From contig JBFWPC010000011.1 in the NCBI GenBank assembly GCA_050250195.1, positions 8,164 to 72,163 on the forward strand: a stretch of 64,000 nucleotides of DNA, given 5' to 3'. The position numbers and the translations under genes are program-made. The notes under the pieces were generated by a model that saw only the letters and a program-made list of their open reading frames with translations, searched no databases and was not told the DNA's origin. Origin of the DNA: Cyclobacteriaceae bacterium. Its GTDB lineage: Bacteria > Bacteroidota > Bacteroidia > Cytophagales > Cyclobacteriaceae. Below, in pieces: positions 1,321 to 22,800 of the stretch (within the stretch, counting starts at the first letter, position 1; every line of letters begins with the position of its first letter).

Positions 1321-1355
1321 CGGCCAGGAGGTTGTGTTTGGTGTGGTCAGATTTG

Positions 1356-4539: not shown

Positions 4540-4744
4540 AACTACACCACTTTTCCGACACCTTCACAGACCCCCTGCAGCACCTTTTCAAAGAACTTTT
4601 TGCAAGTCATAACTCGCAGGTTAAAGATAGGTTTTTCTTCTTTCAATTGAAAAAAAGAAAGGCCGAGTTCCGAGGCATTTTTGTGGACAAAAATACATCT
4701 TGCTGCTGCCCATTTCCGGCAGCTTACAAAGCAAAAAGAGAAGC

Positions 4745-4924
4745 TCAGGGCTTCTCCTTTATGGACTTCACTTCATCGGCAAAAACGGTTGCTACCTTTT
4801 CGTCCTGCAGGTCGGGGAACTCCTGTTTTACGGCTTCTACTTCCTGGTCATTGAGCAACCGGGCTTCTCCGTTATCATCGTTGTGGATCGCCCATCCGTT
4901 GGAGTACTTTCTGATGTAATACAT
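4745..4924 (-). CDS. small hypothetical protein (59 aa) next to the element end
   Basis: Hand translation gives MYYIRKYSNGWAIHNDDNGEARLLNDQEVEAVKQEFPDLQDEKVATVFADEVKSIKEKP*. It falls below the ORF-track cutoff and runs in the same direction as the integrases. No family recognised. Confidence 0.45.
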   Translation of the reverse strand: MYYIRKYSNGWAIHNDDNGEARLLNDQEVEAVKQEFPDLQDEKVATVFADEVKSIKEKP

Positions 4925-5015
4925 AGCTGATTTGGTTTAGAGTTTAAAAGACATTTCCTAAAAGAAAAAACAGAAAAAAAGAAAGCGCTTCATCCAGGTG
5001 GCGGGGCAGACGGAA

Positions 5016-5660
5016 GCAAGGTTTTTGAAGAAAAAATTTTTACCCCTTATCAATCAAGCACATCAAAAATTTTTTCTTCAAAACCCGCAGGGCTTGACCT
5101 TGCTTGCGGCTGAACCGTCCACCTACCTTTGTGCGTCTTTTTTTGATGTTGTCTTTACCTGTATTTCACTTCCGGCATCCAGCCGGTTTTAACAACACAC
5201 CTGGCTATCCGATGAACTTTCCTACAACGCTCCATCACGGTGAGTACCCATGCGCGCCCGAGCAGGCGTACGGGGGTTGCGGGGGGAGCCTGCGAGGAAC
5301 AAGGCGCGCACGAACAATGGGGCATGGCTGGCGACCGCTTTCCCCCCGCAAAAAATTTCCGCCAGCCATGACCGTGCAAGCACAAGTTGTGAAGCGAGTG
5401 GAATGACTGAGGCACGAAGGAATGGAACGTCCGAGGTACACAAGGCATGACAAAAGCGTAATGGAAGTAGGTAAAATAAATGTTCATCAATCAACGTGGT
5501 GGCGGTGTGACGAAGCAAACACCTTTTTCTTTTTCAACTGAAGTTTACTTTGGCACACGGCCACACCATTCGTCCATTTATTTTACTTACTGTAATGAAG
5601 CTTTTGGCGTGACTTGTGTTCCGAGGCCTGAACAACTTGTGCGCAGCACTCCGCTTCTAC
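5016..5660. repeat. structured non-coding region: nested inverted repeats and GC-rich hairpins (candidate ncRNA, ori or recombination arm region)
   Basis: A perfect 19-bp inverted repeat lies at 5023-5041/5065-5083. An 8-bp GC inverted repeat lies at 5251-5258/5303-5310, with an inner gcaggc/gcctgc pair. An 11-bp perfect inverted repeat lies at 5323-5333/5360-5370. Imperfect 52-nt arms at 5431-5482/5575-5626 match at about 39/52 positions. The outer pair is 5380-5390/5632-5642. Confidence 0.6.
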
Positions 5661-5725
5661 CTTGAGGCATGCCGAAGGATGCCAGGCGAGGGTCGGTATG
5701 TGCGCGGGAAGCAGGGTCGGCCGGA

Positions 5726-6613
5726 TCACTGCAATGGATGGTACTTCCTGAGTTGCTCTTGCAGATCTTCTAAATGGGTGGCCTGATATTTTTCCGTGGT
5801 ACTGACGTATTTGTGTCCGCTCATGTATTGAACGACTCGTATATCATTCTTTCGTGTCCACTCGGCTATCGTGCTGGCTCTGATCTGACTGGCATGTTTT
5901 ACCTTCTCATGTTTCAATCGCTTCATCATCCAACCAACTTCTCCGGCAAGTCTTGTCGCTCCTTCCATACCAATGATCAGTTGTTTGATCTTCTCCGGAT
6001 CAGTCACTTTTGGCCCGTATAAAATCCGGTTCCTTGTCTTGTTCAAGTACTCTTGCAACTCAAACACCTGGCTTGCTTCCAGCTTCAATACCCTTTCATT
6101 CGTCCGGTCTGTCCCAGGGATTTTTATTTTTCCTTCCCGTAAGTTGATGTGCCGTGGTTCGAGTAGTTCAAGTTCTTCTATCGTCACAGCCTGGAAGATT
6201 AGTAAGCTAAGTATTACTTTGTTCCGTTGATCTCTGATATCGGTTACCTGATAATTTTCGTACAACTTCATCAGCTCGTCATACTCAACCAGGTCATGGG
6301 GTAATCTCCTGGCTATGCCTCTGATGTAAACGCCTTGTGCCGGATTGCTTTTTACCTTCCACGTCTTTACCAGGTAATGGAAGTAATGCCGTATCGCCAA
6401 TAACTGATGTTGAACGTTGGTTTTACTTTTACCTTTTTTATGACTGTATTTGATATAGTTCATCAGGTCTGCATAGCGGATGTTCTCGACCGGATAGTGA
6501 TGTTTGTCTATCCACTCCAAAAATTCCTTGATCCCATTCTCGTAAATCCGGATTGTACTTTCTGAGAACTCTTTTCCCGTTAAGTAGTCTTTAAAGCTTT
6601 TCATGGATGACAT
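5726..6613 (-). CDS. tyrosine recombinase/integrase paralog B, with apparently degenerate active-site boxes
   Basis: 295 aa with an N-terminal SAM-like domain. The C-terminus has ...SQIRASTIA...GHKYVSTTEKY. Box I reads AVTIEEL where GLRxxEL is expected. Confidence 0.8.
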   Translation of the reverse strand: MSSMKSFKDYLTGKEFSESTIRIYENGIKEFLEWIDKHHYPVENIRYADLMNYIKYSHKKGKSKTNVQHQLLAIRHYFHYLVKTWKVKSNPAQGVYIRGIARRLPHDLVEYDELMKLYENYQVTDIRDQRNKVILSLLIFQAVTIEELELLEPRHINLREGKIKIPGTDRTNERVLKLEASQVFELQEYLNKTRNRILYGPKVTDPEKIKQLIIGMEGATRLAGEVGWMMKRLKHEKVKHASQIRASTIAEWTRKNDIRVVQYMSGHKYVSTTEKYQATHLEDLQEQLRKYHPLQ

Positions 6614-7487
6614 GGGTATAAATTTGTGTTGCTTCCAGTGAACGGTGTCCTAAAAATTTTGCAATGTGCGCCAGCTTCATTCCGCTTTGCAAAAGATGTG
6701 TAGCAATGCTGTGCCGTAATGTATGTAAGCCGATATCCTTTTCGATCTTCGATAACCTGGCAAGTCTTCTCAACCGGATCAGTAAACTTTGTCCTCGTAT
6801 GCGATAGCCTTTGTCACTGACTAGCAATGCAGGGATTTTGTTTCTGGTCATCAAAAATGGTCTGCTGTGATCCAGGTAATCTTTGATGTGCTGCAGGGTT
6901 GTTTCACCTGCCGGCACGTATCGTTCCTTGTAGTTCTTTCCTTTTCGCACATACACGAGCTGGCTGTTAAAATCTATGTCGCTTACATCGAGCTGCACCC
7001 CTTCATTTCTTCTTAAACCACAACCGTAAAAAATTCCCAGCATCACCTTATCACGCAAGCCAAGTACACTTCCGTCCGTGGCTTTGTAAAGCTCTTTCAC
7101 TTCGGCTGTGGTCAGGATATCAGGCACGTGTCGTTTCTCCGGGAGTCGCTCGGTCTCCACTGTAAAGCTTCCTCGATCGGTTTGTCTCACGAACTGGCTC
7201 AGCAAGACCAGGGCCTGGTGATATTTGTTGATGTGACCAGTGCTTAGCTTTCCGCCATGTTTGGCATGTGGCCGCTTCTTCAGTTGAAAAATAAAATCGT
7301 GAACGTGTTGTGCTGTTATCTCCCGGACTTTCTTGACCTCTTCACTTTCCAGCCAGTGAAAAAATTCGTGCATGTACAGTGGCATGTTGTACACGGTGTT
7401 TTCGGCATAGCCTAACAGTGCAAGCCATTCTTTAAAGTCGAGTTCCAGCTCACGGTATGCATAGGTATTCAAGGGTAGATTTTTCAT
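6591..7487 (-). CDS. tyrosine recombinase/integrase A (canonical catalytic residues)
   Basis: 298 aa with GCGLRRNE (box I Arg), HTLRHSIATHLL, GHRSLEATQIYTH (His/Tyr). It overlaps integrase B by 23 nt. Confidence 0.9.
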   Translation of the reverse strand: MKNLPLNTYAYRELELDFKEWLALLGYAENTVYNMPLYMHEFFHWLESEEVKKVREITAQHVHDFIFQLKKRPHAKHGGKLSTGHINKYHQALVLLSQFVRQTDRGSFTVETERLPEKRHVPDILTTAEVKELYKATDGSVLGLRDKVMLGIFYGCGLRRNEGVQLDVSDIDFNSQLVYVRKGKNYKERYVPAGETTLQHIKDYLDHSRPFLMTRNKIPALLVSDKGYRIRGQSLLIRLRRLARLSKIEKDIGLHTLRHSIATHLLQSGMKLAHIAKFLGHRSLEATQIYTHVIHEKL

Positions 7488-7540
7488 GCTACTTGGTTTA
7501 TGGTTAGTAAAAATTTTGGATTCTCCTTATACACCCTTTC

Positions 7541-7645
7541 TGGGACGCGGGACGCCAGACACGTTTTCTTCATTTGCTGATTGTTCTGGCCGATTCTTGC
7601 CTGTTCTGGCGTCCCATCTGGCGTCCCAGGTGTTTGGGACGCCAA
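7541..7645. promoter_or_regulatory. iteron-like cluster of GGGACGC(C)/GGCGTCCC motifs between primase-helicase and integrase A
   Basis: gggacgc is at 7542 and gggacgcc at 7549. tggcgtccc is at about 7607 and 7618. gggacgcc is at 7636. ttctggc is also repeated. That makes five motif copies within about 100 bp. Confidence 0.55.
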
Positions 7646-7647
7646 GA

Positions 7648-10260
7648 CTAAACTGTAATTAACTCAAGCTGATCAAGCTGGCCTTGCAGGTGTCTCTTTA
7701 CTTTCGCGCGAAGCGCTTGTATGTTGTCCCAGTAAAGTACTTTGTAGTTAAAGCCTCTGTTGATGTATCCTCCGGCCTGCCGGATGTATTCCAGGGCCAA
7801 CAGGTCTTGTATGTAGCGGTGCAACTGGCTCTTGCTGATGTGTAGTGCCTGCCTGATCTCTCGCTGGTTAAACTCGTAGCTTTGGTAATGACTGTTGCCT
7901 TTCGTTTTGACATACTGCTTTAATCGTTCATAAAACTGCCGCAAGCTTCCGTCCAGTTCATCCACCTTCAGCACAATGCTTTCAAACATGATCTCGGCTG
8001 CTATTTGAAGATCTTCTTTCTCGCTGATCAATCGACCTTGTGCATCGGTCTTTCGCTGGTATTGATGTAGTAAAGTGATTTGCTTCACAAACGCCTGGTA
8101 CAAGCCGTTCAGCCTTCTGATCTTGTGCGCTTCTTCCGGAAGATGAACTTTGTCAGCATAGGGATTGATCACCTGGCACGGCTTTAAAAGTCTGATGCAA
8201 TGCTGTAAAAATTCCGTGATCTGCTGCTCTCTCTTTTCATCGATCTGGCCAGCGCTCTTTTTGTTTTGATACTGGATGATCTTAATCGTCTGCTCGTGGC
8301 TTTCATCTACAGCAATCAAAAAACAACGGCTCATGTTGTCTTCGTATATCTCGCCTTTGGTAGTACAAGCCATCGATGCAATCGGGCCGTAAACGATTCG
8401 CTCGTAAGCATTCACGTTGCCGTGTTCGTCTTTGCTGGATGTGCTGCTAATGATCACACCTTTGCTTTGCAGCTCTCTAAAGGCAAGCTGCGCTTCTTCC
8501 TTCATCCCGTCCAGGTCTTCGATGCAGATCAATTGATGGCTCAGGTCATACATGCCGTAATTGTACAAGCTGCCTTCCGTCACTCTTGTAAATGCTTTCC
8601 TGCCTTCCTTCGGTATGAAGCTCGAGACCTTTGCCAGTAGATGTGTCTTTCCCGATCCGCTCGAGCCCTGGATAAGCGCGTGCAGTGTCTCCGGCATTTT
8701 ATAGCTCGATGCAATGCCGAACAAAAAAATACGGTTCGTTTCTTCACCAACTACTCCGGCCTGGCCGATCAGGTCGTTGAGTCTCCTGATCAGGTTGGGC
8801 TTACTCAAAAACTCTTTGCATTTGCCTTCCAGGTGTAACGGTACTTGTATGCCTTGTGAGGTTGCGGGTTCTTTGTTCTGGCTTTGCTTTTCCCGGTGTG
8901 CTTCCAATAAGCTGGTAAGCTCTTCCAAATCGAGTTGTATCATATCGGCACGCAAGCCAAGCTTATCGCTTGCATCCCTGGCCAGCTTATCTACTTGCTT
9001 ATCTTCGTACAGATCAATCTTGCTGCGGCTCTTTCTTCCGTTCTGTGGATGCTCGATATCAAGGCTTACGCGCAGGGATTCAAAGTTGCCGTGCAGCTCA
9101 CCTTTGATGTGATAGTTTGCTGTGGCTGTTCTGTACAAAAAACGATGGGGGAAGATTTCAAGCTTGTAGCTGTTCGTTGGTGTAGCCGTGCTTTTACTTT
9201 CAACTCTCCCTGGGACTCCTTCCGGAGAAAAAATGACAACTCGCTTCTCGATCAGGTGTGTAAAGATTTCTTTCTCATGTGCCTGCGCCAGGCTGTTCAC
9301 ATCTTCACCTTCTGGTGTGTTCACCTGGCTAATCGTGATATCCTTTCTGATCTCCTGGAGCTTTGCTGTTACTTTCTTTGTCCCTTCTCTTCCGGCTTCA
9401 TCACCGTCAAAAAATAAAATCACTTCTTCAAGGTGCTTCAGTTCCCTGATCGCTTGCTCATGTTCCTGGATAAATCCATTCGTTCCATAGCAGGCCAATA
9501 CGGTGTATTCGCTTGTGATCGTTGTTAGCTGATGCAAGGTGGCCGCATCAATGATCGCTTCTGTTAAGATCAGCTTCTTTGTCTCCGCTCCTGGATAAGC
9601 AGGATAAAGGCCCTGGTGTGGACCGGGTAAGTAGTAATGTTTGCCGGTCCCGGGATCCTCACTTACGCTGCGGCCATAGATCCCCACCGTGTGGCCTTGA
9701 ACATTTTGCAGGGCGAACACCAAACAGTTTTTGAAGCGATTGAGGTAACGCCCGTCCTGTGTTTTGCTGATCAATCCAATTGCTGCAGCGCTTTCCTTAT
9801 ACTGCTTGTTCCAGCCCTCCGGTACTTTCTCCCCAGTGAAGCCAAGCTTTAATGTCTGCCAGTCTAATCCTCTTCCAGTGGCGTATACTCTCGCACGTTC
9901 TCCGTTAGACATTCCTTTCCGGCATCCTTCCAGGTAACGGGCAAGAACGGCAACCCTGCTAAGTTCTTCCGGTTGATTTGCTTTCGTTTCAATAAAGCCA
10001 AGCAATGACTTGGCTTTCAGGATCGCTTCACGTTTCGTGCTCTTCTCCATTAACCGGATAAACTCGATCACATCTCCTGTGCCGGCTTTGCAATTGGATG
10101 AGAAGCAACAAAAGGTATTGGTCTGCGGATAGATTTGAAGGGAAGGCGTCTTGTCGTTATGGAAGGGACAGCAAAGCATGTTATTCTTGTCTGTGCTCAG
10201 GCTGTAGTGATCGAGCACCTGGCTGATGGTGAGCTGCTGTTTGATCTCAGCTATTTCCAT
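7648..10260 (-). CDS. DNA primase / P-loop NTPase (helicase-like) replication protein
   Basis: 870 aa. It has an N-terminal CHC2 zinc finger (CCPFHNDKTPSL...CCFSSNC) and a Toprim motif (LFFDGDEAGREG). It also has Walker A (GSSGSGKTHLL), Walker B (LICIEDLDG) and a C-terminal wHTH-like tail. Confidence 0.85.
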   Translation of the reverse strand: MEIAEIKQQLTISQVLDHYSLSTDKNNMLCCPFHNDKTPSLQIYPQTNTFCCFSSNCKAGTGDVIEFIRLMEKSTKREAILKAKSLLGFIETKANQPEELSRVAVLARYLEGCRKGMSNGERARVYATGRGLDWQTLKLGFTGEKVPEGWNKQYKESAAAIGLISKTQDGRYLNRFKNCLVFALQNVQGHTVGIYGRSVSEDPGTGKHYYLPGPHQGLYPAYPGAETKKLILTEAIIDAATLHQLTTITSEYTVLACYGTNGFIQEHEQAIRELKHLEEVILFFDGDEAGREGTKKVTAKLQEIRKDITISQVNTPEGEDVNSLAQAHEKEIFTHLIEKRVVIFSPEGVPGRVESKSTATPTNSYKLEIFPHRFLYRTATANYHIKGELHGNFESLRVSLDIEHPQNGRKSRSKIDLYEDKQVDKLARDASDKLGLRADMIQLDLEELTSLLEAHREKQSQNKEPATSQGIQVPLHLEGKCKEFLSKPNLIRRLNDLIGQAGVVGEETNRIFLFGIASSYKMPETLHALIQGSSGSGKTHLLAKVSSFIPKEGRKAFTRVTEGSLYNYGMYDLSHQLICIEDLDGMKEEAQLAFRELQSKGVIISSTSSKDEHGNVNAYERIVYGPIASMACTTKGEIYEDNMSRCFLIAVDESHEQTIKIIQYQNKKSAGQIDEKREQQITEFLQHCIRLLKPCQVINPYADKVHLPEEAHKIRRLNGLYQAFVKQITLLHQYQRKTDAQGRLISEKEDLQIAAEIMFESIVLKVDELDGSLRQFYERLKQYVKTKGNSHYQSYEFNQREIRQALHISKSQLHRYIQDLLALEYIRQAGGYINRGFNYKVLYWDNIQALRAKVKRHLQGQLDQLELITV

Positions 10261-10429
10261 TGGCTGTCGGTTTAATGGTGATCTCCTGGTCTTTCACTGT
10301 GATCTGAACTTGCTCTCCAATCTTGAAGCCGGATTGTTCCAACCATTGGCCAATCAATCGGACTTCGGGTACTGCTTTCTTGTCGTTGCTGCGGTAAGAG
10401 TGGTAAACTTTCAGCTTGCGGTCTGCCAT
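10247..10429 (-). CDS. SymE/AbrB-fold (SpoVT-AbrB-like) small protein
   Basis: 60 aa. The segment VPEVRLIGQWLEQSGFKIGEQVQITVKDQEITI matches the SymE-toxin/AbrB swapped-hairpin pattern. It overlaps the primase start by 14 nt. Confidence 0.6.
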   Translation of the reverse strand: MADRKLKVYHSYRSNDKKAVPEVRLIGQWLEQSGFKIGEQVQITVKDQEITIKPTANGNS

Positions 10430-10570
10430 GAAAATTTTTTTCTGTTGTGTAACATCTGCAACAAAAGTAGAACTTGTTCGGATTTTTCAAAACGAATACC
10501 TTCTTTTTTTGTAGAACACATTAAACTAAATTCGCCAAAATCAGTTGTAAAACTTAATCTTTAGCAGAAC
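10430..10570. promoter_or_regulatory. divergent promoter/operator region between the SymE-like/primase operon and the XRE gene
   Basis: 141-bp AT-rich gap between divergent genes. GTAGAAC is repeated at 10467 and 10511, with GCAGAAC at 10564. A short inverted repeat ttgttg...caacaa lies at about 10444-10466. Confidence 0.4.
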
Positions 10571-10906
10571 ATGGTCAACATTGGGGAGCGGATTACTGAG
10601 CTCAGGAAGCGGAAAAACTGGTCGCAAAGCGATTTGGCTGAAGCCATCGGGGCTTCCAGGGATATCATTGGCAAGTACGAACGTAATGAGAACAGCCCTT
10701 CTGTGGAGATGGCGGTAAAAATTGCCAAGGCCTTTGATGTTCCGGTGGACTACCTACTTGGTGAAGGTAAGCACGCTTCGTACAGCAAAGAGACTGTGAA
10801 GCGCATTGAGGAAATTGAGTCCATGGATGACAAAACCAGGTCTGTCCTGTTTAATCTCATTGATACTTATATCCGCGATGCAAAGGCGCGTAAAGCTTAT
10901 AGTTGA
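10571..10906 (+). CDS. XRE-family helix-turn-helix transcriptional regulator
   Basis: 111 aa. IGERITELRKRKNWSQSDLAEAIGASRDIIGKYERNENSPSVEMAVKIAKAF is a typical Cro/C1 HTH. Confidence 0.9.
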   Translation: MVNIGERITELRKRKNWSQSDLAEAIGASRDIIGKYERNENSPSVEMAVKIAKAFDVPVDYLLGEGKHASYSKETVKRIEEIESMDDKTRSVLFNLIDTYIRDAKARKAYS

Positions 10907-11121
10907 TGAGCACTGCTTCTCTTGTTAACTCTGCCGGCCTGGTCATTGACATCATCGGTGCGCTGATGATCTTTCTAAATTCTCCCAAGCTGGAAGCCAC
11001 TGCCTTTATCGGTGCCACTGCTGACGATCCTGTTGTCAACCGAAGAAACAAAATCGCTAAGTATGGAATGGGCGTGATTATGATCGGGTTTGCTTTCCAA
11101 CTCGTCAGCAATTTCTTATAA
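10903..11121 (+). CDS. small two-TM membrane protein, translationally coupled to the XRE gene
   Basis: 72 aa with two hydrophobic helices. Its ATGA start overlaps the XRE stop. Confidence 0.55.
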   Translation: MMSTASLVNSAGLVIDIIGALMIFLNSPKLEATAFIGATADDPVVNRRNKIAKYGMGVIMIGFAFQLVSNFL

Positions 11122-11157
11122 AGAAAAAACCTAGCGATTAGGCTGGGCTTCTAAGTT

Positions 11158-11694
11158 TTAGTATGTGTATGTCTTTATGAGCTTACCTTTTTTGCTATAC
11201 TTCTTAACGGTACGTAATTTGCCGTCCGGATAATAAAATTTCAGCTTTCCAATCGGAATACCTTCTTTAAAAAATCCCTCAACCCTCTTATTACCATTTT
11301 CATAGTAATCAATTTGAGTACCCTCGCATTTCTGATCACAGCAACAATAACCAATGAAGTTAGGATGCGATGTTGGTTCAAGGCATGAACTAACTCTTAT
11401 AAGACGAAGTGTGTCACTAAAATTTTCAATTGATTTTACATCAAACTTTTTCCCAAGTTCAGTGCTATCAATTTTTCCAATCACATAAGATAGAACATAT
11501 GTACCAGTATCCTTCAATATGAGAACACCAGTGGTATCTTGGGTATTGAAAGCAATTCCATCCTTTTTTAGTCCAAAAAAATCAATCCTCCTGACCTCCT
11601 TTGAGCAAGGATCATAGCCATAAAGGTTAAAATTTATTTGACCGAAAGCGGAAAAACAGATTATCAAAAAAGTCAAAGTCAAAATGCTTCTCAT
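11158..11694 (-). CDS. secreted MORN/YwqK-like repeat protein, putative immunity to CT1 (copy in element 1)
   Basis: 178 aa with a signal peptide. The C-terminus YYENGNKRVEGFFKEGIPIGKLKFYYPDGKL resembles YwqK-family antitoxin repeats. Its ATGA start overlaps the CT1 stop. Confidence 0.7.
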   Translation of the reverse strand: MRSILTLTFLIICFSAFGQINFNLYGYDPCSKEVRRIDFFGLKKDGIAFNTQDTTGVLILKDTGTYVLSYVIGKIDSTELGKKFDVKSIENFSDTLRLIRVSSCLEPTSHPNFIGYCCCDQKCEGTQIDYYENGNKRVEGFFKEGIPIGKLKFYYPDGKLRTVKKYSKKGKLIKTYTY

Positions 11695-12638
11695 CTATTT
11701 GGTTGGTAGTAGGTAGTTCCATTAAACCTAAATGCCTGTCTCGTTAACCCAGACAATCGAGTCAGCTCGTATTGATTCATTTGACTTAACGGCCTTCCTT
11801 GATAACTATAATTATTTACATCCACGGGGCCGGTAGGCAAACTTTTATATCTATCTGGCAAAGAGTTCACCCCGTTTGCGCCTGGCTCACTACTTCCAAA
11901 AAGTGCTTGTCGTTGATAGCCGGCCACTTCATCATGTTTATCAAGTAAAAAAGGAGCACCAAGTCTACCTTGTGAGCCTAGACTAATTTGTCCGGTCTCA
12001 AACTGATAGCCGTGTTTCAGTTCGTGAGCAAAAAGCCCAAGTCCTGCATTAGATGAGATCGTGATGTCAACGGCACCTGTACCAAAATTAAATGAGGTGG
12101 CAGCTACTGTATTTCCCATGCCCGATATTGGCCCGTTTTCATTTAACGAGGAACTTTCAACTACATTATACACTTGACTTGATGCCGCCATCGTTCCTAT
12201 TTCCCCCCGCGTTTCTTCAAGTGCCTGGTTATTAGATTCAAGTCTACCAATTTGTCTATTGAGGCGATTAGTTTGTTTCTCTGAAAGTCCACCTGCTGCA
12301 AGTGCTTCTCGTTTCTCTCCAATCTTTTCATTGTTCCGTTCCTGTCTGCTGTTGATATCAGCGACCAATCGATTAACCCATGCCCATGCTGCTTCTGTAA
12401 ACTCCATCCCATTGGGGTCTATGTAGCGTATCGGATTGTTTGCCATCGCTACATAAGGAGACATACTGTAAAACTTCTCCGCAAGTGGATCAGGACTCCA
12501 CCAACGACCGTCCGATGGATCGTACATCCTTGCACCAAAATCGTATGTATCCAAGTCAAGGCCATCTTGGATTTCTTTGCTTTGATACAAGTACTTGTTT
12601 TCAGCTGAGTTTTCGCGAGAGTACGAGTTAAATGTCAA
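11691..12638 (-). pseudogene. promoterless orphan copy of Rhs tip CT1 (RHS core domain plus HExxH toxin), identical to the tip of the full-length Rhs
   Basis: The translation is identical to the last 315 aa of the 2477-aa Rhs. The in-frame upstream sequence hits TGA 10 codons before the first Tyr of YYPFGL (L*RCRKSGVVYYPFGL). There is no ATG. Confidence 0.8.
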
Positions 12639-12653
12639 TCCAAATGGATAATA
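12621..12653. repeat. att-like site B (gtacgagttaaatgtcaatccaaatggataata)
   Basis: Identical to site C at 20735-20767. It forms the junction between the two element copies. Confidence 0.85.
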
Positions 12654-12858
12654 AACTACACCACTTTTCCGACACCTTCACAGACCCCCTGCAGCACCTT
12701 TTCAAAGAACTTTTTGCAAGTCATAACTCGCAGGTTAAAGATAGGTTTTTCTTCTTTCAATTGAAAAAAAGAAAGGCCGAGTTCCGAGGCATTTTTGTGG
12801 ACAAAAATACATCTTGCTGCTGCCCATTTCCGGCAGCTTACAAAGCAAAAAGAGAAGC

Positions 12859-13038
12859 TCAGGGCTTCTCCTTTATGGACTTCACTTCATCGGCAAAAAC
12901 GGTTGCTACCTTTTCGTCCTGCAGGTCGGGGAACTCCTGTTTTACGGCTTCTACTTCCTGGTCATTGAGCAACCGGGCTTCTCCGTTATCATCGTTGTGG
13001 ATCGCCCATCCGTTGGAGTACTTTCTGATGTAATACAT
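12859..13038 (-). CDS. small hypothetical protein (59 aa), copy 2
   Basis: Same sequence as 4745-4924 at +8114. Confidence 0.45.
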   Translation of the reverse strand: MYYIRKYSNGWAIHNDDNGEARLLNDQEVEAVKQEFPDLQDEKVATVFADEVKSIKEKP

Positions 13039-13129
13039 AGCTGATTTGGTTTAGAGTTTAAAAGACATTTCCTAAAAGAAAAAACAGAAAAAAAGAAAGC
13101 GCTTCATCCAGGTGGCGGGGCAGACGGAA

Positions 13130-15601: not shown

Positions 15602-15654
15602 GCTACTTGGTTTATGGTTAGTAAAAATTTTGGATTCTCCTTATACACCCTTTC

Positions 15655-15759
15655 TGGGACGCGGGACGCCAGACACGTTTTCTTCATTTGCTGATTGTTC
15701 TGGCCGATTCTTGCCTGTTCTGGCGTCCCATCTGGCGTCCCAGGTGTTTGGGACGCCAA
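15655..15759. promoter_or_regulatory. GGGACGCC iteron-like cluster, copy 2
   Basis: Same sequence as 7541-7645 at +8114. Confidence 0.55.
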
Positions 15760-15761
15760 GA

Positions 15762-18374
15762 CTAAACTGTAATTAACTCAAGCTGATCAAGCTGGCCTTG
15801 CAGGTGTCTCTTTACTTTCGCGCGAAGCGCTTGTATGTTGTCCCAGTAAAGTACTTTGTAGTTAAAGCCTCTGTTGATGTATCCTCCGGCCTGCCGGATG
15901 TATTCCAGGGCCAACAGGTCTTGTATGTAGCGGTGCAACTGGCTCTTGCTGATGTGTAGTGCCTGCCTGATCTCTCGCTGGTTAAACTCGTAGCTTTGGT
16001 AATGACTGTTGCCTTTCGTTTTGACATACTGCTTTAATCGTTCATAAAACTGCCGCAAGCTTCCGTCCAGTTCATCCACCTTCAGCACAATGCTTTCAAA
16101 CATGATCTCGGCTGCTATTTGAAGATCTTCTTTCTCGCTGATCAATCGACCTTGTGCATCGGTCTTTCGCTGGTATTGATGTAGTAAAGTGATTTGCTTC
16201 ACAAACGCCTGGTACAAGCCGTTCAGCCTTCTGATCTTGTGCGCTTCTTCCGGAAGATGAACTTTGTCAGCATAGGGATTGATCACCTGGCACGGCTTTA
16301 AAAGTCTGATGCAATGCTGTAAAAATTCCGTGATCTGCTGCTCTCTCTTTTCATCGATCTGGCCAGCGCTCTTTTTGTTTTGATACTGGATGATCTTAAT
16401 CGTCTGCTCGTGGCTTTCATCTACAGCAATCAAAAAACAACGGCTCATGTTGTCTTCGTATATCTCGCCTTTGGTAGTACAAGCCATCGATGCAATCGGG
16501 CCGTAAACGATTCGCTCGTAAGCATTCACGTTGCCGTGTTCGTCTTTGCTGGATGTGCTGCTAATGATCACACCTTTGCTTTGCAGCTCTCTAAAGGCAA
16601 GCTGCGCTTCTTCCTTCATCCCGTCCAGGTCTTCGATGCAGATCAATTGATGGCTCAGGTCATACATGCCGTAATTGTACAAGCTGCCTTCCGTCACTCT
16701 TGTAAATGCTTTCCTGCCTTCCTTCGGTATGAAGCTCGAGACCTTTGCCAGTAGATGTGTCTTTCCCGATCCGCTCGAGCCCTGGATAAGCGCGTGCAGT
16801 GTCTCCGGCATTTTATAGCTCGATGCAATGCCGAACAAAAAAATACGGTTCGTTTCTTCACCAACTACTCCGGCCTGGCCGATCAGGTCGTTGAGTCTCC
16901 TGATCAGGTTGGGCTTACTCAAAAACTCTTTGCATTTGCCTTCCAGGTGTAACGGTACTTGTATGCCTTGTGAGGTTGCGGGTTCTTTGTTCTGGCTTTG
17001 CTTTTCCCGGTGTGCTTCCAATAAGCTGGTAAGCTCTTCCAAATCGAGTTGTATCATATCGGCACGCAAGCCAAGCTTATCGCTTGCATCCCTGGCCAGC
17101 TTATCTACTTGCTTATCTTCGTACAGATCAATCTTGCTGCGGCTCTTTCTTCCGTTCTGTGGATGCTCGATATCAAGGCTTACGCGCAGGGATTCAAAGT
17201 TGCCGTGCAGCTCACCTTTGATGTGATAGTTTGCTGTGGCTGTTCTGTACAAAAAACGATGGGGGAAGATTTCAAGCTTGTAGCTGTTCGTTGGTGTAGC
17301 CGTGCTTTTACTTTCAACTCTCCCTGGGACTCCTTCCGGAGAAAAAATGACAACTCGCTTCTCGATCAGGTGTGTAAAGATTTCTTTCTCATGTGCCTGC
17401 GCCAGGCTGTTCACATCTTCACCTTCTGGTGTGTTCACCTGGCTAATCGTGATATCCTTTCTGATCTCCTGGAGCTTTGCTGTTACTTTCTTTGTCCCTT
17501 CTCTTCCGGCTTCATCACCGTCAAAAAATAAAATCACTTCTTCAAGGTGCTTCAGTTCCCTGATCGCTTGCTCATGTTCCTGGATAAATCCATTCGTTCC
17601 ATAGCAGGCCAATACGGTGTATTCGCTTGTGATCGTTGTTAGCTGATGCAAGGTGGCCGCATCAATGATCGCTTCTGTTAAGATCAGCTTCTTTGTCTCC
17701 GCTCCTGGATAAGCAGGATAAAGGCCCTGGTGTGGACCGGGTAAGTAGTAATGTTTGCCGGTCCCGGGATCCTCACTTACGCTGCGGCCATAGATCCCCA
17801 CCGTGTGGCCTTGAACATTTTGCAGGGCGAACACCAAACAGTTTTTGAAGCGATTGAGGTAACGCCCGTCCTGTGTTTTGCTGATCAATCCAATTGCTGC
17901 AGCGCTTTCCTTATACTGCTTGTTCCAGCCCTCCGGTACTTTCTCCCCAGTGAAGCCAAGCTTTAATGTCTGCCAGTCTAATCCTCTTCCAGTGGCGTAT
18001 ACTCTCGCACGTTCTCCGTTAGACATTCCTTTCCGGCATCCTTCCAGGTAACGGGCAAGAACGGCAACCCTGCTAAGTTCTTCCGGTTGATTTGCTTTCG
18101 TTTCAATAAAGCCAAGCAATGACTTGGCTTTCAGGATCGCTTCACGTTTCGTGCTCTTCTCCATTAACCGGATAAACTCGATCACATCTCCTGTGCCGGC
18201 TTTGCAATTGGATGAGAAGCAACAAAAGGTATTGGTCTGCGGATAGATTTGAAGGGAAGGCGTCTTGTCGTTATGGAAGGGACAGCAAAGCATGTTATTC
18301 TTGTCTGTGCTCAGGCTGTAGTGATCGAGCACCTGGCTGATGGTGAGCTGCTGTTTGATCTCAGCTATTTCCAT
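15762..18374 (-). CDS. DNA primase / P-loop NTPase replication protein, copy 2
   Basis: Translation identical to 7648-10260. Confidence 0.85.
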   Translation of the reverse strand: MEIAEIKQQLTISQVLDHYSLSTDKNNMLCCPFHNDKTPSLQIYPQTNTFCCFSSNCKAGTGDVIEFIRLMEKSTKREAILKAKSLLGFIETKANQPEELSRVAVLARYLEGCRKGMSNGERARVYATGRGLDWQTLKLGFTGEKVPEGWNKQYKESAAAIGLISKTQDGRYLNRFKNCLVFALQNVQGHTVGIYGRSVSEDPGTGKHYYLPGPHQGLYPAYPGAETKKLILTEAIIDAATLHQLTTITSEYTVLACYGTNGFIQEHEQAIRELKHLEEVILFFDGDEAGREGTKKVTAKLQEIRKDITISQVNTPEGEDVNSLAQAHEKEIFTHLIEKRVVIFSPEGVPGRVESKSTATPTNSYKLEIFPHRFLYRTATANYHIKGELHGNFESLRVSLDIEHPQNGRKSRSKIDLYEDKQVDKLARDASDKLGLRADMIQLDLEELTSLLEAHREKQSQNKEPATSQGIQVPLHLEGKCKEFLSKPNLIRRLNDLIGQAGVVGEETNRIFLFGIASSYKMPETLHALIQGSSGSGKTHLLAKVSSFIPKEGRKAFTRVTEGSLYNYGMYDLSHQLICIEDLDGMKEEAQLAFRELQSKGVIISSTSSKDEHGNVNAYERIVYGPIASMACTTKGEIYEDNMSRCFLIAVDESHEQTIKIIQYQNKKSAGQIDEKREQQITEFLQHCIRLLKPCQVINPYADKVHLPEEAHKIRRLNGLYQAFVKQITLLHQYQRKTDAQGRLISEKEDLQIAAEIMFESIVLKVDELDGSLRQFYERLKQYVKTKGNSHYQSYEFNQREIRQALHISKSQLHRYIQDLLALEYIRQAGGYINRGFNYKVLYWDNIQALRAKVKRHLQGQLDQLELITV

Positions 18375-18543
18375 TGGCTGTCGGTTTAATGGTGATCTCC
18401 TGGTCTTTCACTGTGATCTGAACTTGCTCTCCAATCTTGAAGCCGGATTGTTCCAACCATTGGCCAATCAATCGGACTTCGGGTACTGCTTTCTTGTCGT
18501 TGCTGCGGTAAGAGTGGTAAACTTTCAGCTTGCGGTCTGCCAT
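18361..18543 (-). CDS. SymE/AbrB-fold small protein, copy 2
   Basis: Translation identical to 10247-10429. Confidence 0.6.
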   Translation of the reverse strand: MADRKLKVYHSYRSNDKKAVPEVRLIGQWLEQSGFKIGEQVQITVKDQEITIKPTANGNS

Positions 18544-18684
18544 GAAAATTTTTTTCTGTTGTGTAACATCTGCAACAAAAGTAGAACTTGTTCGGATTTT
18601 TCAAAACGAATACCTTCTTTTTTTGTAGAACACATTAAACTAAATTCGCCAAAATCAGTTGTAAAACTTAATCTTTAGCAGAAC

Positions 18685-19020
18685 ATGGTCAACATTGGGG
18701 AGCGGATTACTGAGCTCAGGAAGCGGAAAAACTGGTCGCAAAGCGATTTGGCTGAAGCCATCGGGGCTTCCAGGGATATCATTGGCAAGTACGAACGTAA
18801 TGAGAACAGCCCTTCTGTGGAGATGGCGGTAAAAATTGCCAAGGCCTTTGATGTTCCGGTGGACTACCTACTTGGTGAAGGTAAGCACGCTTCGTACAGC
18901 AAAGAGACTGTGAAGCGCATTGAGGAAATTGAGTCCATGGATGACAAAACCAGGTCTGTCCTGTTTAATCTCATTGATACTTATATCCGCGATGCAAAGG
19001 CGCGTAAAGCTTATAGTTGA
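18685..19020 (+). CDS. XRE-family HTH regulator, copy 2
   Basis: Translation identical to 10571-10906. Confidence 0.9.
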   Translation: MVNIGERITELRKRKNWSQSDLAEAIGASRDIIGKYERNENSPSVEMAVKIAKAFDVPVDYLLGEGKHASYSKETVKRIEEIESMDDKTRSVLFNLIDTYIRDAKARKAYS

Positions 19021-19235
19021 TGAGCACTGCTTCTCTTGTTAACTCTGCCGGCCTGGTCATTGACATCATCGGTGCGCTGATGATCTTTCTAAATTCTCCC
19101 AAGCTGGAAGCCACTGCCTTTATCGGTGCCACTGCTGACGATCCTGTTGTCAACCGAAGAAACAAAATCGCTAAGTATGGAATGGGCGTGATTATGATCG
19201 GGTTTGCTTTCCAACTCGTCAGCAATTTCTTATAA
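19017..19235 (+). CDS. small two-TM membrane protein, copy 2
   Basis: Translation identical to 10903-11121. Confidence 0.55.
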   Translation: MMSTASLVNSAGLVIDIIGALMIFLNSPKLEATAFIGATADDPVVNRRNKIAKYGMGVIMIGFAFQLVSNFL

Positions 19236-19271
19236 AGAAAAAACCTAGCGATTAGGCTGGGCTTCTAAGTT

Positions 19272-19808
19272 TTAGTATGTGTATGTCTTTATGAGCTTAC
19301 CTTTTTTGCTATACTTCTTAACGGTACGTAATTTGCCGTCCGGATAATAAAATTTCAGCTTTCCAATCGGAATACCTTCTTTAAAAAATCCCTCAACCCT
19401 CTTATTACCATTTTCATAGTAATCAATTTGAGTACCCTCGCATTTCTGATCACAGCAACAATAACCAATGAAGTTAGGATGCGATGTTGGTTCAAGGCAT
19501 GAACTAACTCTTATAAGACGAAGTGTGTCACTAAAATTTTCAATTGATTTTACATCAAACTTTTTCCCAAGTTCAGTGCTATCAATTTTTCCAATCACAT
19601 AAGATAGAACATATGTACCAGTATCCTTCAATATGAGAACACCAGTGGTATCTTGGGTATTGAAAGCAATTCCATCCTTTTTTAGTCCAAAAAAATCAAT
19701 CCTCCTGACCTCCTTTGAGCAAGGATCATAGCCATAAAGGTTAAAATTTATTTGACCGAAAGCGGAAAAACAGATTATCAAAAAAGTCAAAGTCAAAATG
19801 CTTCTCAT
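19272..19808 (-). CDS. secreted MORN/YwqK-like immunity protein for CT1 (copy adjacent to the active Rhs)
   Basis: Translation identical to 11158-11694. A 4-nt overlap with the Rhs stop codon. Confidence 0.7.
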   Translation of the reverse strand: MRSILTLTFLIICFSAFGQINFNLYGYDPCSKEVRRIDFFGLKKDGIAFNTQDTTGVLILKDTGTYVLSYVIGKIDSTELGKKFDVKSIENFSDTLRLIRVSSCLEPTSHPNFIGYCCCDQKCEGTQIDYYENGNKRVEGFFKEGIPIGKLKFYYPDGKLRTVKKYSKKGKLIKTYTY

Positions 19809-22800
19809 CTATTTGGTTGGTAGTAGGTAGTTCCATTAAACCTAAATGCCTGTCTCGTTAACCCAGACAATCGAGTCAGCTCGTATTGATTCATTTGACT
19901 TAACGGCCTTCCTTGATAACTATAATTATTTACATCCACGGGGCCGGTAGGCAAACTTTTATATCTATCTGGCAAAGAGTTCACCCCGTTTGCGCCTGGC
20001 TCACTACTTCCAAAAAGTGCTTGTCGTTGATAGCCGGCCACTTCATCATGTTTATCAAGTAAAAAAGGAGCACCAAGTCTACCTTGTGAGCCTAGACTAA
20101 TTTGTCCGGTCTCAAACTGATAGCCGTGTTTCAGTTCGTGAGCAAAAAGCCCAAGTCCTGCATTAGATGAGATCGTGATGTCAACGGCACCTGTACCAAA
20201 ATTAAATGAGGTGGCAGCTACTGTATTTCCCATGCCCGATATTGGCCCGTTTTCATTTAACGAGGAACTTTCAACTACATTATACACTTGACTTGATGCC
20301 GCCATCGTTCCTATTTCCCCCCGCGTTTCTTCAAGTGCCTGGTTATTAGATTCAAGTCTACCAATTTGTCTATTGAGGCGATTAGTTTGTTTCTCTGAAA
20401 GTCCACCTGCTGCAAGTGCTTCTCGTTTCTCTCCAATCTTTTCATTGTTCCGTTCCTGTCTGCTGTTGATATCAGCGACCAATCGATTAACCCATGCCCA
20501 TGCTGCTTCTGTAAACTCCATCCCATTGGGGTCTATGTAGCGTATCGGATTGTTTGCCATCGCTACATAAGGAGACATACTGTAAAACTTCTCCGCAAGT
20601 GGATCAGGACTCCACCAACGACCGTCCGATGGATCGTACATCCTTGCACCAAAATCGTATGTATCCAAGTCAAGGCCATCTTGGATTTCTTTGCTTTGAT
20701 ACAAGTACTTGTTTTCAGCTGAGTTTTCGCGAGAGTACGAGTTAAATGTCAATCCAAATGGATAATACTCATCACTCTGCACCACCGGGCTTTGCGTGTG
20801 GGTAACGGCCAGATCATCGAAGTAAACTTCCACGGGCGTGTCGTTCTCGTTGGATAGGTAAATATACATATATCCAGGCTCGGTGATGGTGATCGGATCA
20901 AAGTACAGCCTGTCATGGGGGGCATCTTGTCCGTACTCTCTGCTGTTGCTGGTAACGCGCCTGTAGCCAAAATCAAGTACATCGGTCATCTTCTTGTTGA
21001 ACAAAATATAGTTCAAATAGGCCTTCGGTGCCGTGCCCCCTTCGCTGCTGTGGTCGATGGGAGTAAATGGGTACGTTTCGCTGCCGATACTGCCGGGTAC
21101 ACCACCGTCAATCACCGTGCCCGGAGGGGCTGTGCCGCCCGCTACGGCCGCCATGAAACTGGCGAGCGCACCCGTCCAATTCGATTGCTCGGGGTCGAGG
21201 TATTTGGCGTACACTTCCATGCTCACCTGGTCGCCCGGCATCACCTGCAACGATTTCGCCAAGCCATAAATCGAGTTAGTACCCTGGCCTGTCAGTCGTG
21301 TGGAGTACCAGGTACCTCCCTCGTTGGTGTGGTCGAACAAATCGTAGTTGACCTTCACCGCTTCCTCGTAGTACAGGAACTCCCCTTGCTCCTCTGCCGC
21401 ATGAGCTGTTTCCAGGGTGGCCACATCGGTGGTGACAGACTCGCGCGTGGTAAACGTCAATCGCGTGTTGCCCAGGTGGTCTTTCAAATGGTATTGGTAT
21501 TCGGCCTCATTGTTGAGCAACTGGATAACCTCAATATCATTGATATAAAACACCTCTCCTGCCGCTACGGTGTTCCACACCACGCCCACGTCCATCACGC
21601 TGGCACCGGCCGGAACAGTCACGTGCTGCTCCACCCAACTTTCGGAGGCGGCTGTGTTAGGCAGTGTCGCCCCCGGCCAGCCGTTGTCGGCTCCGTTGAT
21701 TTTAACCTGTATGTACACGGGGTTGGTACCTGTTCGGTAGCCCTTCACACGCACTTTGTAACGTTCACCGGGTTGTACGGCTATGTAGTTTCCTATTGGA
21801 AACACCCCTGCACGAGGCGTGGTCCCACTCGATGTTACCTGGACATAGTTCTGGTTGCCATTGAGCGTAGTAATGCCTGCGGTTGCATTCGTGGGCGTGA
21901 AATCATCGAGGGTGTTTGCCTGGTTGCCGTAAATGGGTTCGGTTGCGCTCAATACAATGCGGCCCTCTTCGTGGCTGATAAACTGAAGTTCGTCATTTTC
22001 GTACACCAGCTCACCCAAATAATCGGTTTGCTTTTGGGATAGGCTGTAAGTGGCCACCTGCGCGAGTTTGCGGCCAGTGGCATCGTAGATATAACGCACC
22101 GAGTTACCCGTGCCCCTAACTACCAATTCGGGCAGGTTGAGGAAATTGTAGGTGATGTTGCTGGTAATACCTTTGTTTTGATCTCGTACCATATTTCCAT
22201 TGGCATCGTAGGTGTAATCGTTGCCTGTGTTGGTGCCATCAATGAAGCCGGTCACCTTGTCGCCTGAGTCGGCCACTTTTAACAATTGGTTATTGGCATT
22301 GTAAGTGTAGACCAGGTTATCCATTAAACTTCCTGCGTCACCTCTTCGCAGCAGCGTCTTGATATTGCCATTCTGGTCATAGGTCAACCCATTTTCGGCA
22401 AACCGGCTGTCGGGGTTCGACCAACTGCCGTTGTGTCTGAAATAGTCGGCATTTTGCAGGCGGTTGAGGGGATCGTAGCTGTAACGGTAGGCCTGCTGTT
22501 TTTCGTTACCCAACCCGAGGTTCTTGCTCCACTTGATGGCACTGATGTTTCCGTTGTAAAGACTGGTGTTTCCCAACGCAGCATCGACCTCGTTATAGGC
22601 GATGTTCATGCCCCACAGGTCGTTGCTATCGTCATTGTTGACAGCTACTTGAAGTTGCGCGTTGTTCATGGAAGTGAGCCAGCCGCGAATATTATAACGA
22701 TAATCGACCGACTGTCTGAAGTTGGTGCCATCTGTGCTGTGCAGTTTTTTGTCGACCAACTGACCGAGCTCGTTGTATTCGTTGCGGGTGAGCAGAATCT

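Follow-up and report, generated by a model that had tools for sequence, protein, structure and literature searches.

We are confident, though not certain, that the 8,114-bp unit repeated in tandem in the 64,000-nucleotide stretch of Cyclobacteriaceae DNA analyzed here (the window) is a site-specific integrative element which swaps the tips of an Rhs-like toxin, and that the window contains two copies of it in tandem; the copy number itself was not verified with reads. The first-pass annotation had reported a perfect head-to-tail duplication, and pairwise comparison bears this out: positions 4540-12653 and 12654-20767 are each 8114 bp long, contain no N bases and have 0 differing positions. An exact 8-kb repeat cannot have a chance origin. 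The range of 4540-20767 given for the repeat is correct at its right end but not at its left, as identity at a period of 8114 begins at 4526, and the full repeated stretch is 4526-20767, or 16,242 bp (2 x 8114 + 14). The unit borders are marked by a 14-mer, CCAAATGGATAATA, which is present three times (at 4526, 12640 and 20754). On the gene strand the 14-mer reads TATTATCCATTTGG and codes for YYPFG.

The 14-mer is positioned at the joint of the conserved shell (20768-27238) and the current variable tip, CT1 (19805-20767, minus strand), of an Rhs-like polymorphic toxin gene (19805-27238, minus strand; 2477 aa) with matches to DUF6443, Ig_7 and Rhs_assc_core. The Rhs_assc_core (TIGR03696) match covers residues 2158-2240 of the 2477-aa protein, YYPFGL starts at residue 2158, and TIGR03696 also matches both orphan tips. 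CT1 bears a HELKH (HExxH) motif. Directly upstream of the toxin gene lies a gene for a 1149-aa RHS/YD-repeat protein (27246-30695, minus strand; RHS_repeat, YD_repeat_2x). The 14-mer falls exactly on the YYPFG codons of both the toxin gene and a displaced orphan tip, CT2 (3748-4539, minus strand), a peptidase M15/VanY-like toxin of 263 aa from YYPFG, which would continue the reading frame of the Rhs shell if both element copies were removed. Small overlapping ORFs follow both CT1 (178 aa) and CT2 (203 aa), and immunity conferred by these adjacent genes is inferred. The putative imm1 protein after CT1 has only a faint MORN_2 match, and the putative CT2 immunity protein, encoded at 3147-3758 (minus strand) with an 11-nt overlap with the CT2 end, had no match in the family search. 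Delivery of the fused toxin is likewise inferred.

Judged from stop and start codons alone, the sequence fits a silent middle CT1 copy (11691-12653), although its expression can only be inferred. The middle CT1 and CT2 are alike in having a stop 9 codons upstream of YYPFG and no in-frame ATG, GTG or TTG between the two, which agrees with the missing ATG noted earlier; the distance from the TGA to the first Tyr of YYPFGL had been given as 10 codons, and in the orphan copies it is actually 9, with 8 between. The first candidate start in the orphan copies is a TTG, the Leu codon of YYPFGL. With an Rhs core before a variable tip and startless orphan tips at the motif, the locus fits an Rhs/YD-repeat polymorphic toxin locus with orphan modules in these two respects, while its immunity genes are putative.

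The anatomy and borders of the element were observed directly. The attL core, the 14-mer at the Rhs shell/CT1 joint, occupies 20754-20767 (minus strand) and is followed by the element copy adjoining the toxin gene (12654-20753, minus strand), whose CT1 is fused to the shell. This copy contains putative imm1 (19272-19808), a 71-aa ORF (19020-19235, plus strand), an RstR-like HTH gene (18685-19020, plus strand), an AbrB/SymE-like 60-aa ORF (18361-18543), a primase-helicase gene (15762-18374), genes for recombinase A (14705-15601) and recombinase B (13840-14727), and then a non-coding right arm. At the middle, attP-like junction (12640-12653, minus strand) its right end meets the beginning of CT1 in the distal copy (4540-12639, minus strand), which is identical and contains orphan CT1 (11691-12653), putative imm1 (11158-11694), the HTH gene (10571-10906, plus strand), the AbrB-like ORF (10247-10429), the primase-helicase gene (7648-10260, minus strand), recombinases A (6591-7487, minus strand) and B (5726-6613, minus strand) and the right arm (4540-5725). 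The attR core (4526-4539, minus strand) joins the element right end to displaced CT2. The HTH protein scores above the NCBIfam RstR cut-off, and the 870-aa primase-helicase comprises a CHC2 zinc finger, Toprim, a P-loop region and, at its C terminus, a winged HTH; that it replicates an excised circle is an inference.

Recombinase A is a XerD-like protein of 298 aa (E = 6e-31 to the XerD structure 1a0p) in which all six residues of the R-K-H-R-H-Y set are present, and these catalytic residues were observed to be unchanged in 63-65 of the 65 members of the family. Recombinase B is a divergent XerC/D-like protein of 295 aa which retains Arg-II, His-III and the Tyr nucleophile; its Arg-I position is Thr and varies across the family, and the first catalytic arginine is missing in most family members. 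The pair scores below the XerC/XerD equivalog cut-offs. No experiment ties these recombinases to the junctions, and their catalysis of integration and excision is inferred.

The right end carries a pair of motifs of ~15 nt each, AAAAGGTGCTGCAGG and GAAAAGTGGTGTAGT, spaced ~33 nt apart (4541-4588, minus strand; repeated at 12655-12702). These motifs are conserved across subfamilies whose target motifs in Rhs genes differ, are retained in Aureispira as well, and are candidate recombinase-binding sites. The non-coding right arm also contains a long conserved hairpin (4975-5125, minus strand; second copy at 13089-13239), which is 83-86% identical to relatives, compared with about 73% for the coding backbone, and has a DNA fold z of -5.2 with ~60 predicted pairs, several with compensatory changes. 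A replication origin and a small RNA are both candidate roles. A PHROGs search of the element matched only primase, integrase and regulator families, and no transfer or packaging genes. The gene content leaves the route from cell to cell unexplained.

The element belongs to a family that is widespread in Bacteroidota. Homologues of the primase number more than 3,700, mostly on 5-9 kb contigs, and the family was surveyed at 71 GTDB loci in six orders of the phylum. The synteny and position of the family are direct observations: 55 of 62 elements are preceded, at a distance of 1.6-3.6 kb and in the same orientation, by an Rhs-associated core segment, another Rhs-core segment follows the element in 34 of 38, both recombinase genes are kept in 54 of 55, and open frames of 800-2600 codons cross the left border in relatives. 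Cargo diversity was also observed, with unrelated toxin tails in 64 of 66 pairs despite backbones that are 71-84% identical. The attachment motifs of relatives are other conserved motifs in the same Rhs-core region that here supplies the YYPFG codons. Circle-like contigs with terminal overlaps were observed in Flexithrix dorotheae (L023), Belliella filtrata (L021), L028 and L073, and in L073 the overlap is 141 bp and the contig includes an attP junction. No relative of the element was found in IMG/VR, and a literature search found no description of the family. Three features of a tyrosine-recombinase integrative element are present, namely an intact recombinase A site, a short core (14 bp here and 6-8 bp in relatives, with target-like sequence on only one side and non-homologous shell-side flanks) and a recurring target across hosts. 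The attP-like junction in the reads, the circle-like contigs of relatives and one locus that varies between monomer and dimer bear on a circular form, which is inferred, as is recombinase-dependent integration and excision.

Evidence for the junctions in the source sample came from the Logan short-read assembly of SRR27751815, which is independent of the MAG contig. Three Logan contigs represent the locus (window positions 1276-4555, 4526-12653 and 20738-38016), with overlaps of 30 bp (k-1) that fall exactly on the borders of the unit. The branching of the graph at these points indicates that the reads contain a junction from unit end to unit start, which could reflect a copy number of 2, a higher number, or one copy plus a free circle. 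The Logan graph of this sample has no branch for an empty-site junction. As no empty attB allele of the window's Rhs gene was found either, mobility at this locus is inferred from relatives.

These data leave room for the possibility, an assembly artefact having already been named as a caveat in the first-pass annotation, that the duplication is a matter of assembler representation, in which one integrated copy plus free circles (or an array of unknown length) was walked once around the loop to give two perfect copies. The source is a 132 kb MAG contig, and the Logan topology (flank, unit and flank, plus a loop from unit to unit) is equally compatible with a dimer, a longer array, and a monomer with a circle. 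In addition, relatives have circle-like contigs, every near-perfect dimer that was found proved to be exact, and for one locus a MEGAHIT assembly (L008) gives a monomer where a scaffolded one (L006/L007) gives a dimer, at 99.7-99.96% identity. However, eight further perfect dimers were observed besides the window locus, for nine independent cases in total. Of the eight, two lie in finished replicons of isolates, namely Aureibacter tunicatorum pAT2 (2 x 8169 + 8) and a plasmid of Aureispira sp. CCB-E (2 x 7652 + 6); the others are L002/3, L006/7, L025, L038, L054 and, on a 5.6-Mb contig, L080. Divergent tandem arrays at 89-99.8% identity, found in a complete MAG chromosome and, in a Chitinophaga pinensis isolate, on a contig with a 'tig' name, are impossible as loop artefacts. 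Active excision should also give an empty-site branch in the Logan graph, where there is none, unless circles far outnumber excisions. For these reasons we consider an assembly origin unlikely, and even if it were true the biological picture, an integrative element and its attP junction, would not change. With nine independent perfect dimers, including the two in finished replicons of isolates, the perfect dimer appears to be a state that is formed repeatedly or maintained, and zero divergence need not be the sign of a one-off recent accident.

The position of the borders bears on whether the host could have produced the repeat without the recombinases, by unequal crossing-over or replication slippage between the YYPFG-coding sequences of the main gene and orphan CT2. 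The borders do lie within sequence common to CT1 and CT2 (33 bp with 2 mismatches, the 14-mer included), and both duplication of Rhs loci and recombination between their main and orphan copies are known (PMC3967940). However, CT1 and CT2 DNA outside the 14-mer is only about 58% identical, the 14-mer is the longest exact run, and the Rhs shell bears no relation to the right end of the element (19 of 80 positions identical in an ungapped comparison). Relatives have crossover windows of only 6-8 bp (TTTGGG, TATCCATT, TATGGATT and TACGAG), against the 522 bp at 95% over which homologous recombination rearranges and duplicates main and orphan rhs copies in Salmonella (PMC3967940). RecA-type main/orphan recombination on the Salmonella model was rejected, since 14 bp in tips that are 58% identical does not meet its long-homology criterion. 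Furthermore, the junction is always at the end of a recombinase-bearing element with the conserved right-end motif, the same junction is found in circle-like contigs, and nine independent perfect dimers of different elements would not be expected from rare microhomology events. A host-driven origin is therefore improbable. Shuffling of resident tip cassettes by resident host recombinases, as in an integron, a shufflon or an rAID, can be dismissed almost entirely: XerC/D-like recombinases do lie near toxin/immunity arrays in Bacteroidales rAID (10.1101/2025.05.03.651265) and polyimmunity loci (PMC3482391), and the elements lack transfer genes, but no unit lacks a recombinase pair, a primase-helicase and a repressor of its own. 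Units also come out of assembly as separate contigs, 5-9 kb long or circle-like, and the Rhs genes that precede related backbones differ, across six orders of Bacteroidota and on plasmids.

The preferred reading remains integration of an element at an attachment site that would lie inside the Rhs-associated core coding sequence, here the YYPFG codons. Recombination of the circular element with the resident Rhs gene would fuse the host shell in frame to the element's CT1, and the former tip/immunity pair, CT2 and its partner, would be pushed downstream as a promoterless orphan, preceded by the element right end, which would provide the stop codon. The element family suggests a route by which Rhs toxins acquire new warheads. 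The order seen in the window is attL, element, attP-like junction, element and attR, with the two identical copies head to tail. The tandem copies were most likely made by the same recombination system, either by a second integration into attL, which still resembles an attachment site, by integration of a dimeric circle, or by attL x attR exchange between sister chromosomes. Double integration, a dimeric circle and exchange between att copies had been put forward in the first-pass annotation, and as a class they are supported by the borders in the Rhs core, the two recombinases and primase-helicase of each unit, the relatives and the other dimers. A single fixed overlap of 6-8 perfectly identical bp does not explain all the junctions without heteroduplex resolution, because the identity windows of three close relatives have only 'TT' in common.

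A broader proposal is offered only tentatively, as we think it may well prove wrong. The tandem dimer would be the working state of the element and not an accident, and the family would be an undescribed, widespread Bacteroidota class which arms Rhs shells by in-frame site-specific integration, the mechanism of Rhs C-terminal displacement in the phylum. Excision of a single copy would then be suicidal, because the installed toxin kills cells without the matching immunity gene. If so, the dimer would permit copy-out, in which one copy leaves as a circle and the other retains the toxin-immunity pair, analogous to the tandem arrays needed by CTXphi.

Several known systems share features with this element. 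Jackson and colleagues reportedly described Rhs C-terminal displacement and orphan rhs-CT/rhsI arrays in 2009, a subject also treated by Koskiniemi and colleagues in 2014 (PMC3967940). Such systems likewise have a constant shell, a variable tip and an immunity gene, with older tips kept downstream as promoterless orphans starting at a conserved motif and tip exchange accompanied by locus duplication. However, the new tip here comes on an element that also encodes recombinases and a replication gene, and the crossover is limited to 6-14 bp. Integrative elements that target gene 3' ends (tRNA-gene and protein-gene integrases, streptococcal IMEs) carry a replacement 3' end which restores the same product. 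They resemble the element in having an att core in a gene, a downstream frame given by the element, flanking direct repeats and a tyrosine recombinase, but here the C-terminal domain is swapped for a different toxin with a putative immunity gene, and there are two recombinases, not one.

CTXphi and the Vibrio IMEX use host XerC/D at chromosomal dif; they are filamentous phages with rolling-circle replication and the RstR repressor, and tandem CTXphi prophage arrays are frequent and functionally required. Xer-type recombination, frequent tandem arrays and an RstR-scoring HTH protein are common to both, but our element brings an Xer-like pair of its own along with a primase-helicase, has an Rhs gene as its target and lacks virion genes. 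Identity as an IMEX was rejected on account of this pair and of a site in the Rhs gene, not dif. Phage-inducible chromosomal islands are 8-15 kb integrated elements with an integrase, a cI-like repressor and a primase-helicase. The element is similarly small and integrated and has this module, but no packaging or capsid-remodelling genes were detected, and its attachment is inside a toxin gene. A PICI-like satellite identity was also rejected, as PHROGs gave only primase, integrase and regulator and IMG/VR contained no relatives.

In rAID, one recombinase ends an array of small cassettes, with no replication gene and with cassettes unfused to an active toxin (10.1101/2025.05.03.651265). Like rAID and polyimmunity loci (10.1101/2025.05.03.651265, PMC3482391), the element occurs in Bacteroidota and links a tyrosine recombinase to putative orphan immunity genes and toxin remnants. 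Unlike rAID, it has two recombinases, a replication gene and a tip fused to the toxin shell. Lastly, shufflons and the Gin/Cin tail-fibre switches are resident invertible segments. These systems also recombine a constant/variable boundary site-specifically and exchange a C-terminal domain, but in the element described here the exchange would occur through integration of an autonomous circular element.

The repeated units at 4540-12653 and 12654-20767 are both 8114 bp long and were identical at all positions in a pairwise comparison, which bears out the apparently perfect 8,114-bp tandem duplication proposed in the first-pass annotation. The start given for the duplicated region, 4540, did not hold, as identity at a period of 8114 already begins 14 bp earlier at 4526, and the full repeated stretch is 4526-20767, or 2 x 8114 + 14 bp. 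The extra 14-mer, CCAAATGGATAATA, is found at 4526, 12640 and 20754, and its minus-strand sequence, TAT TAT CCA TTT GG, supplies the codons of YYPFG.

In gene orientation, the repeat starts inside an Rhs-like toxin gene on the minus strand (19805-27238). The encoded protein of 2477 aa matches DUF6443, Ig_7 and the RHS-associated core TIGR03696 (residues 2158-2240). YYPFGL starts at residue 2158, the beginning of the core domain, and the rest of the protein belongs to the repeated unit. The constant part is referred to as the shell. The toxin gene is preceded by a gene for an RHS/YD-repeat protein of 1149 aa (27246-30695). The Rhs machinery thus comprises two neighbouring genes with 8 nt between them, a pairing also seen upstream of the toxin in relatives. 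Further upstream, a 492-aa Fic-domain protein is encoded at 35889-37367, near tRNA-Cys (37957-38028). This tRNA was the only match in a tRNA scan and an Rfam search (gathering thresholds) of the window, and the element is not located at a tRNA gene.

Each unit encodes the current toxin tip, CT1 (320 aa, with a HELKH motif), an overlapping putative immunity ORF of 178 aa, an RstR-family HTH repressor and a 71-aa ORF in divergent orientation, an AbrB/SymE-like ORF of 60 aa, a primase-helicase of 870 aa and two XerC/D-like tyrosine recombinases, A (298 aa) and B (295 aa). In gene orientation, the last part of the unit is about 1.2 kb of non-coding DNA. The HTH protein (10571-10906 and 18685-19020) scores 97.6 bits against an NCBIfam RstR cut-off of 80; this family includes the repressor of Vibrio CTXphi, another Xer-linked element, which is noted for tandem arrays. 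Recombinase A aligns with XerD (E = 6e-31), and the residues of its R-K-H-R-H-Y set do not vary across 63-65 of 65 family members. In recombinase B, Arg-II, His-III and the Tyr are retained in 61 of 61, and the Arg-I position is variable, with Thr in the window. Both recombinases score well under the XerC/XerD equivalog cut-offs.

Beyond the repeat, a third Rhs-core segment (3748-4539) carries CT2, the displaced older tip. It starts with YYPFGLTFNSY, runs into a peptidase M15/VanY-like domain and is followed by an overlapping 203-aa ORF. A 528-aa ORF without a family match (1356-2942) lies between this CT2 immunity candidate and thyA (309-1103). An identical element end stands ahead of both orphan tips, the middle CT1 and CT2. 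This end supplies the upstream TGA noted earlier for the middle CT1, at 9 codons before the first Tyr rather than 10, and contains no in-frame start, in line with the lack of an ATG noted there. Removal of both units would join the shell to CT2 in frame. A search with a synthetic shell plus CT2 protein found no empty-site allele of this Rhs gene above 59% identity.

The unit is most likely a site-specific integrative element with its attachment site within the Rhs gene. Integration would fuse the host shell to the tip of the element and displace the earlier tip as an orphan, and the window can be read as attL (core 20754-20767), element, attP-like junction (12640-12653), element and attR (core 4526-4539). 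The att-based origin of the tandem suggested by the first-pass annotation is supported by the att-like borders in the Rhs gene, the recombinases of the element itself and the recurrence of dimers. The dimer was most likely produced by the element's own recombination system. It could have arisen by a second integration into attL, by integration of a dimeric circle or by attL x attR exchange between sister chromosomes, and sequence does not distinguish between the three. By inference, a cell that excised a lone copy would lose its immunity gene while its siblings went on deploying CT1, and a dimer would let one copy leave safely.

The unit-to-unit junction that the first-pass annotation proposed to look for in reads is supported by the Logan short-read assembly of SRR27751815. 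Three contigs correspond to window 1276-4555, 4526-12653 and 20738-38016, and they share 30-bp (k-1) overlaps located exactly at the unit borders. The graph would branch there only if reads hold the junction of unit end and unit start, and thus this junction is present in the reads. The Logan graph of SRR27751815 contains no empty-site junction, since both flank contigs extend 16 bp beyond the 14-mer unbranched. Either a tandem array or an integrated copy with abundant circles would give this topology, which carries no information on copy number. It remains possible that the assembler walked a loop and wrote an integrated monomer plus circle as a dimer in this MAG contig. Such an error would leave the identity of the element unchanged.

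The tandem dimer state is common among these Rhs-tip-delivering elements. Perfect dimers, with 0 mismatches over the comparable part, were found at six related loci (L002/3, L006/7, L025, L038, L054 and L080), of which L054 is in a Chitinophaga filiformis isolate (ZLX-1) and L080 is on a 5.6-Mb contig. In addition, two finished replicons of isolates carry perfect dimers. For example, on pAT2 of Aureibacter tunicatorum NBRC 107587, an Rhs gene is followed by a dimer of 2 x 8169 + 8 bp and then by an orphan tip that carries the annotation polymorphic toxin type 47. The other is a plasmid of the isolate Aureispira sp. CCB-E (2 x 7652 + 6 bp). Two metagenome assemblies represent one locus differently, as a monomer and as a dimer, at 99.7-99.96% identity. 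Perfect dimers in nine lineages are probably regenerated or maintained rather than nine recent accidents. Divergent tandems (89-99.8% identity, up to 3 copies) occur in the complete chromosome of a MAG and in a Chitinophaga pinensis isolate, on a contig with a 'tig' name, which indicates that different elements stack at one Rhs gene. The short cores, the fixed ends of the element and this recurrence make homologous or microhomology-mediated duplication by the host an unlikely source of the tandem.

The borders of the integrative element were compared with those of its relatives. In three close relatives, the three-way border identity measures 6 bp (TTTGGG), 8 bp (TATCCATT) and no fewer than 5 bp, and in each case falls within the YYPFG codons. 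Other subfamilies target other conserved motifs of the region: YRYGFNG, ENKYLYNGKE, YDYGARFYDP, VDPL and YExSNHLGN. The right end, on the non-coding side, carries a pair of conserved motifs of about 15 nt (consensus near GAAAAAGTKGTGYAGG) irrespective of the target motif that follows. A dif-like symmetric 11-6-11 site around TTTGG seemed possible in three elements; it was unsupported by Chryseotalea sanaruensis L005, which has a different CT start, and no claim is made about cleavage positions. Elements of the YYPFG subfamily end in about 70 nt (4541-4610 and 12655-12724) that resemble a decayed, frame-broken shell end (VYFDD...SPVVQ). The right end of a Bacteroidales relative (L017) retains 109 codons of shell as a 360-bp direct repeat with 92% identity, a hint that the attP of the element may be derived from an Rhs gene. 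On the 5.6-Mb Cytophagales contig (L080:1740-1800), KRCIEYYPFGM is an element end of the YYPFG type located 18 codons ahead of a YRYGFNG-type dimer border, and thus a single Rhs locus can accumulate elements that target different motifs. Some orphan tips (L013:1000-4030 and L007:17829-20400) are preceded by true shell fragments of 40-80 codons and not by an element end, which indicates that a second, perhaps homologous, route of tip displacement coexists with the element route.

The non-coding right arm also contains a long conserved hairpin (4975-5125 and 13089-13239) with about 60 predicted pairs, a DNA fold z of -5.2 and compensatory changes at several pairs. Its conservation is 83-86%, against about 73% for the coding backbone. 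The loop is variable, with a 45-nt insertion in L006, and a T-rich run follows. The hairpin has no match in Rfam and is a candidate replication origin or small RNA.

The element belongs to a large family that appears to be undescribed and widespread. More than 3,700 primase homologues were found, mostly on 5-9 kb contigs, and a primase-profile scan of GTDB species genomes gave 71 loci in Cytophagales, Chitinophagales, Saprospirales, Flavobacteriales, Sphingobacteriales and Bacteroidales. Synteny was counted from 77 primase copies, and Rhs-core segments were located by tblastn with the shell end and tip head of the window. An Rhs-associated core segment lies 1.6-3.6 kb upstream on the same strand in 55 of the 62 copies with sufficient sequence, two recombinase genes follow the primase in 54 of 55, and a further Rhs-core segment lies 2-5 kb beyond in 34 of 38. 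Open frames of 800-2600 codons cross the left border. Eleven contigs start less than 100 bp from the left border, and the ends of four (L021 from Belliella filtrata DSM 111904, L023 from Flexithrix dorotheae DSM 6795, L028 and L073) overlap in a way typical of circles or unresolved tandems, with L073 including a right end linked to the start of a tip. The backbones of close relatives are 71-84% identical, but conservation is absent from the first 2.2 kb. Tips are homologous over their first 95 residues in 66 of 66 pairs, and the toxin tails are unrelated in 64 of 66. A resident cassette-shuffling system is unlikely, since replication and recombination genes are carried by every unit and units are found behind different Rhs genes across the phylum.

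A near search with the whole unit gave no match in E. coli genomes, the primase profile found no relative in IMG/VR, and a phage collection gave only partial primase matches below 30% identity. Short element contigs also occur in bins from unrelated phyla (Microcystis, Nostochopsis, Proteobacteria, Bacillota and Micrarchaeota). The simplest explanation is that small contigs of differing coverage were assigned to the wrong bins, and this may reflect an element copy number unlike that of the chromosome.

Since about 2009-2012, tip acquisition and orphan arrays of Rhs and other polymorphic toxins have been put down to recombination that is either homologous or unspecified. A concrete agent open to testing is suggested by this locus and its many relatives: an element of 8 kb that carries its own two recombinases and a replication gene, integrates at a conserved motif within the toxin gene and brings a new toxin-immunity pair in frame. 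If confirmed, this would tie mobile-element biology directly to interbacterial warfare, as the element acquires an addiction module and the host acquires a weapon and retains its old immunity. It would also account for many unexplained 5-9 kb Bacteroidota contigs and contig breaks at Rhs genes, provide a natural system for in-frame domain swapping via site-specific recombination and identify culturable strains for testing the model. Full-text literature searches turned up no account of an element of this kind; subscription journals were poorly covered, and an earlier report is not excluded. A comparative survey of polymorphic toxins ascribed tip replacement to recombination with cassettes and mentions XerC/D genes only beside polyimmunity loci (PMC3482391). 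The rAID systems of Bacteroidales link one tyrosine recombinase to immunity arrays (10.1101/2025.05.03.651265). In Salmonella, homologous recombination between main and orphan rhs rests on 522 bp at 95% identity (PMC3967940). The similarity of CT1 and CT2 DNA in the window, 58% identity over 330 nt with the 14-mer as the longest exact run, falls far short of the Salmonella case.
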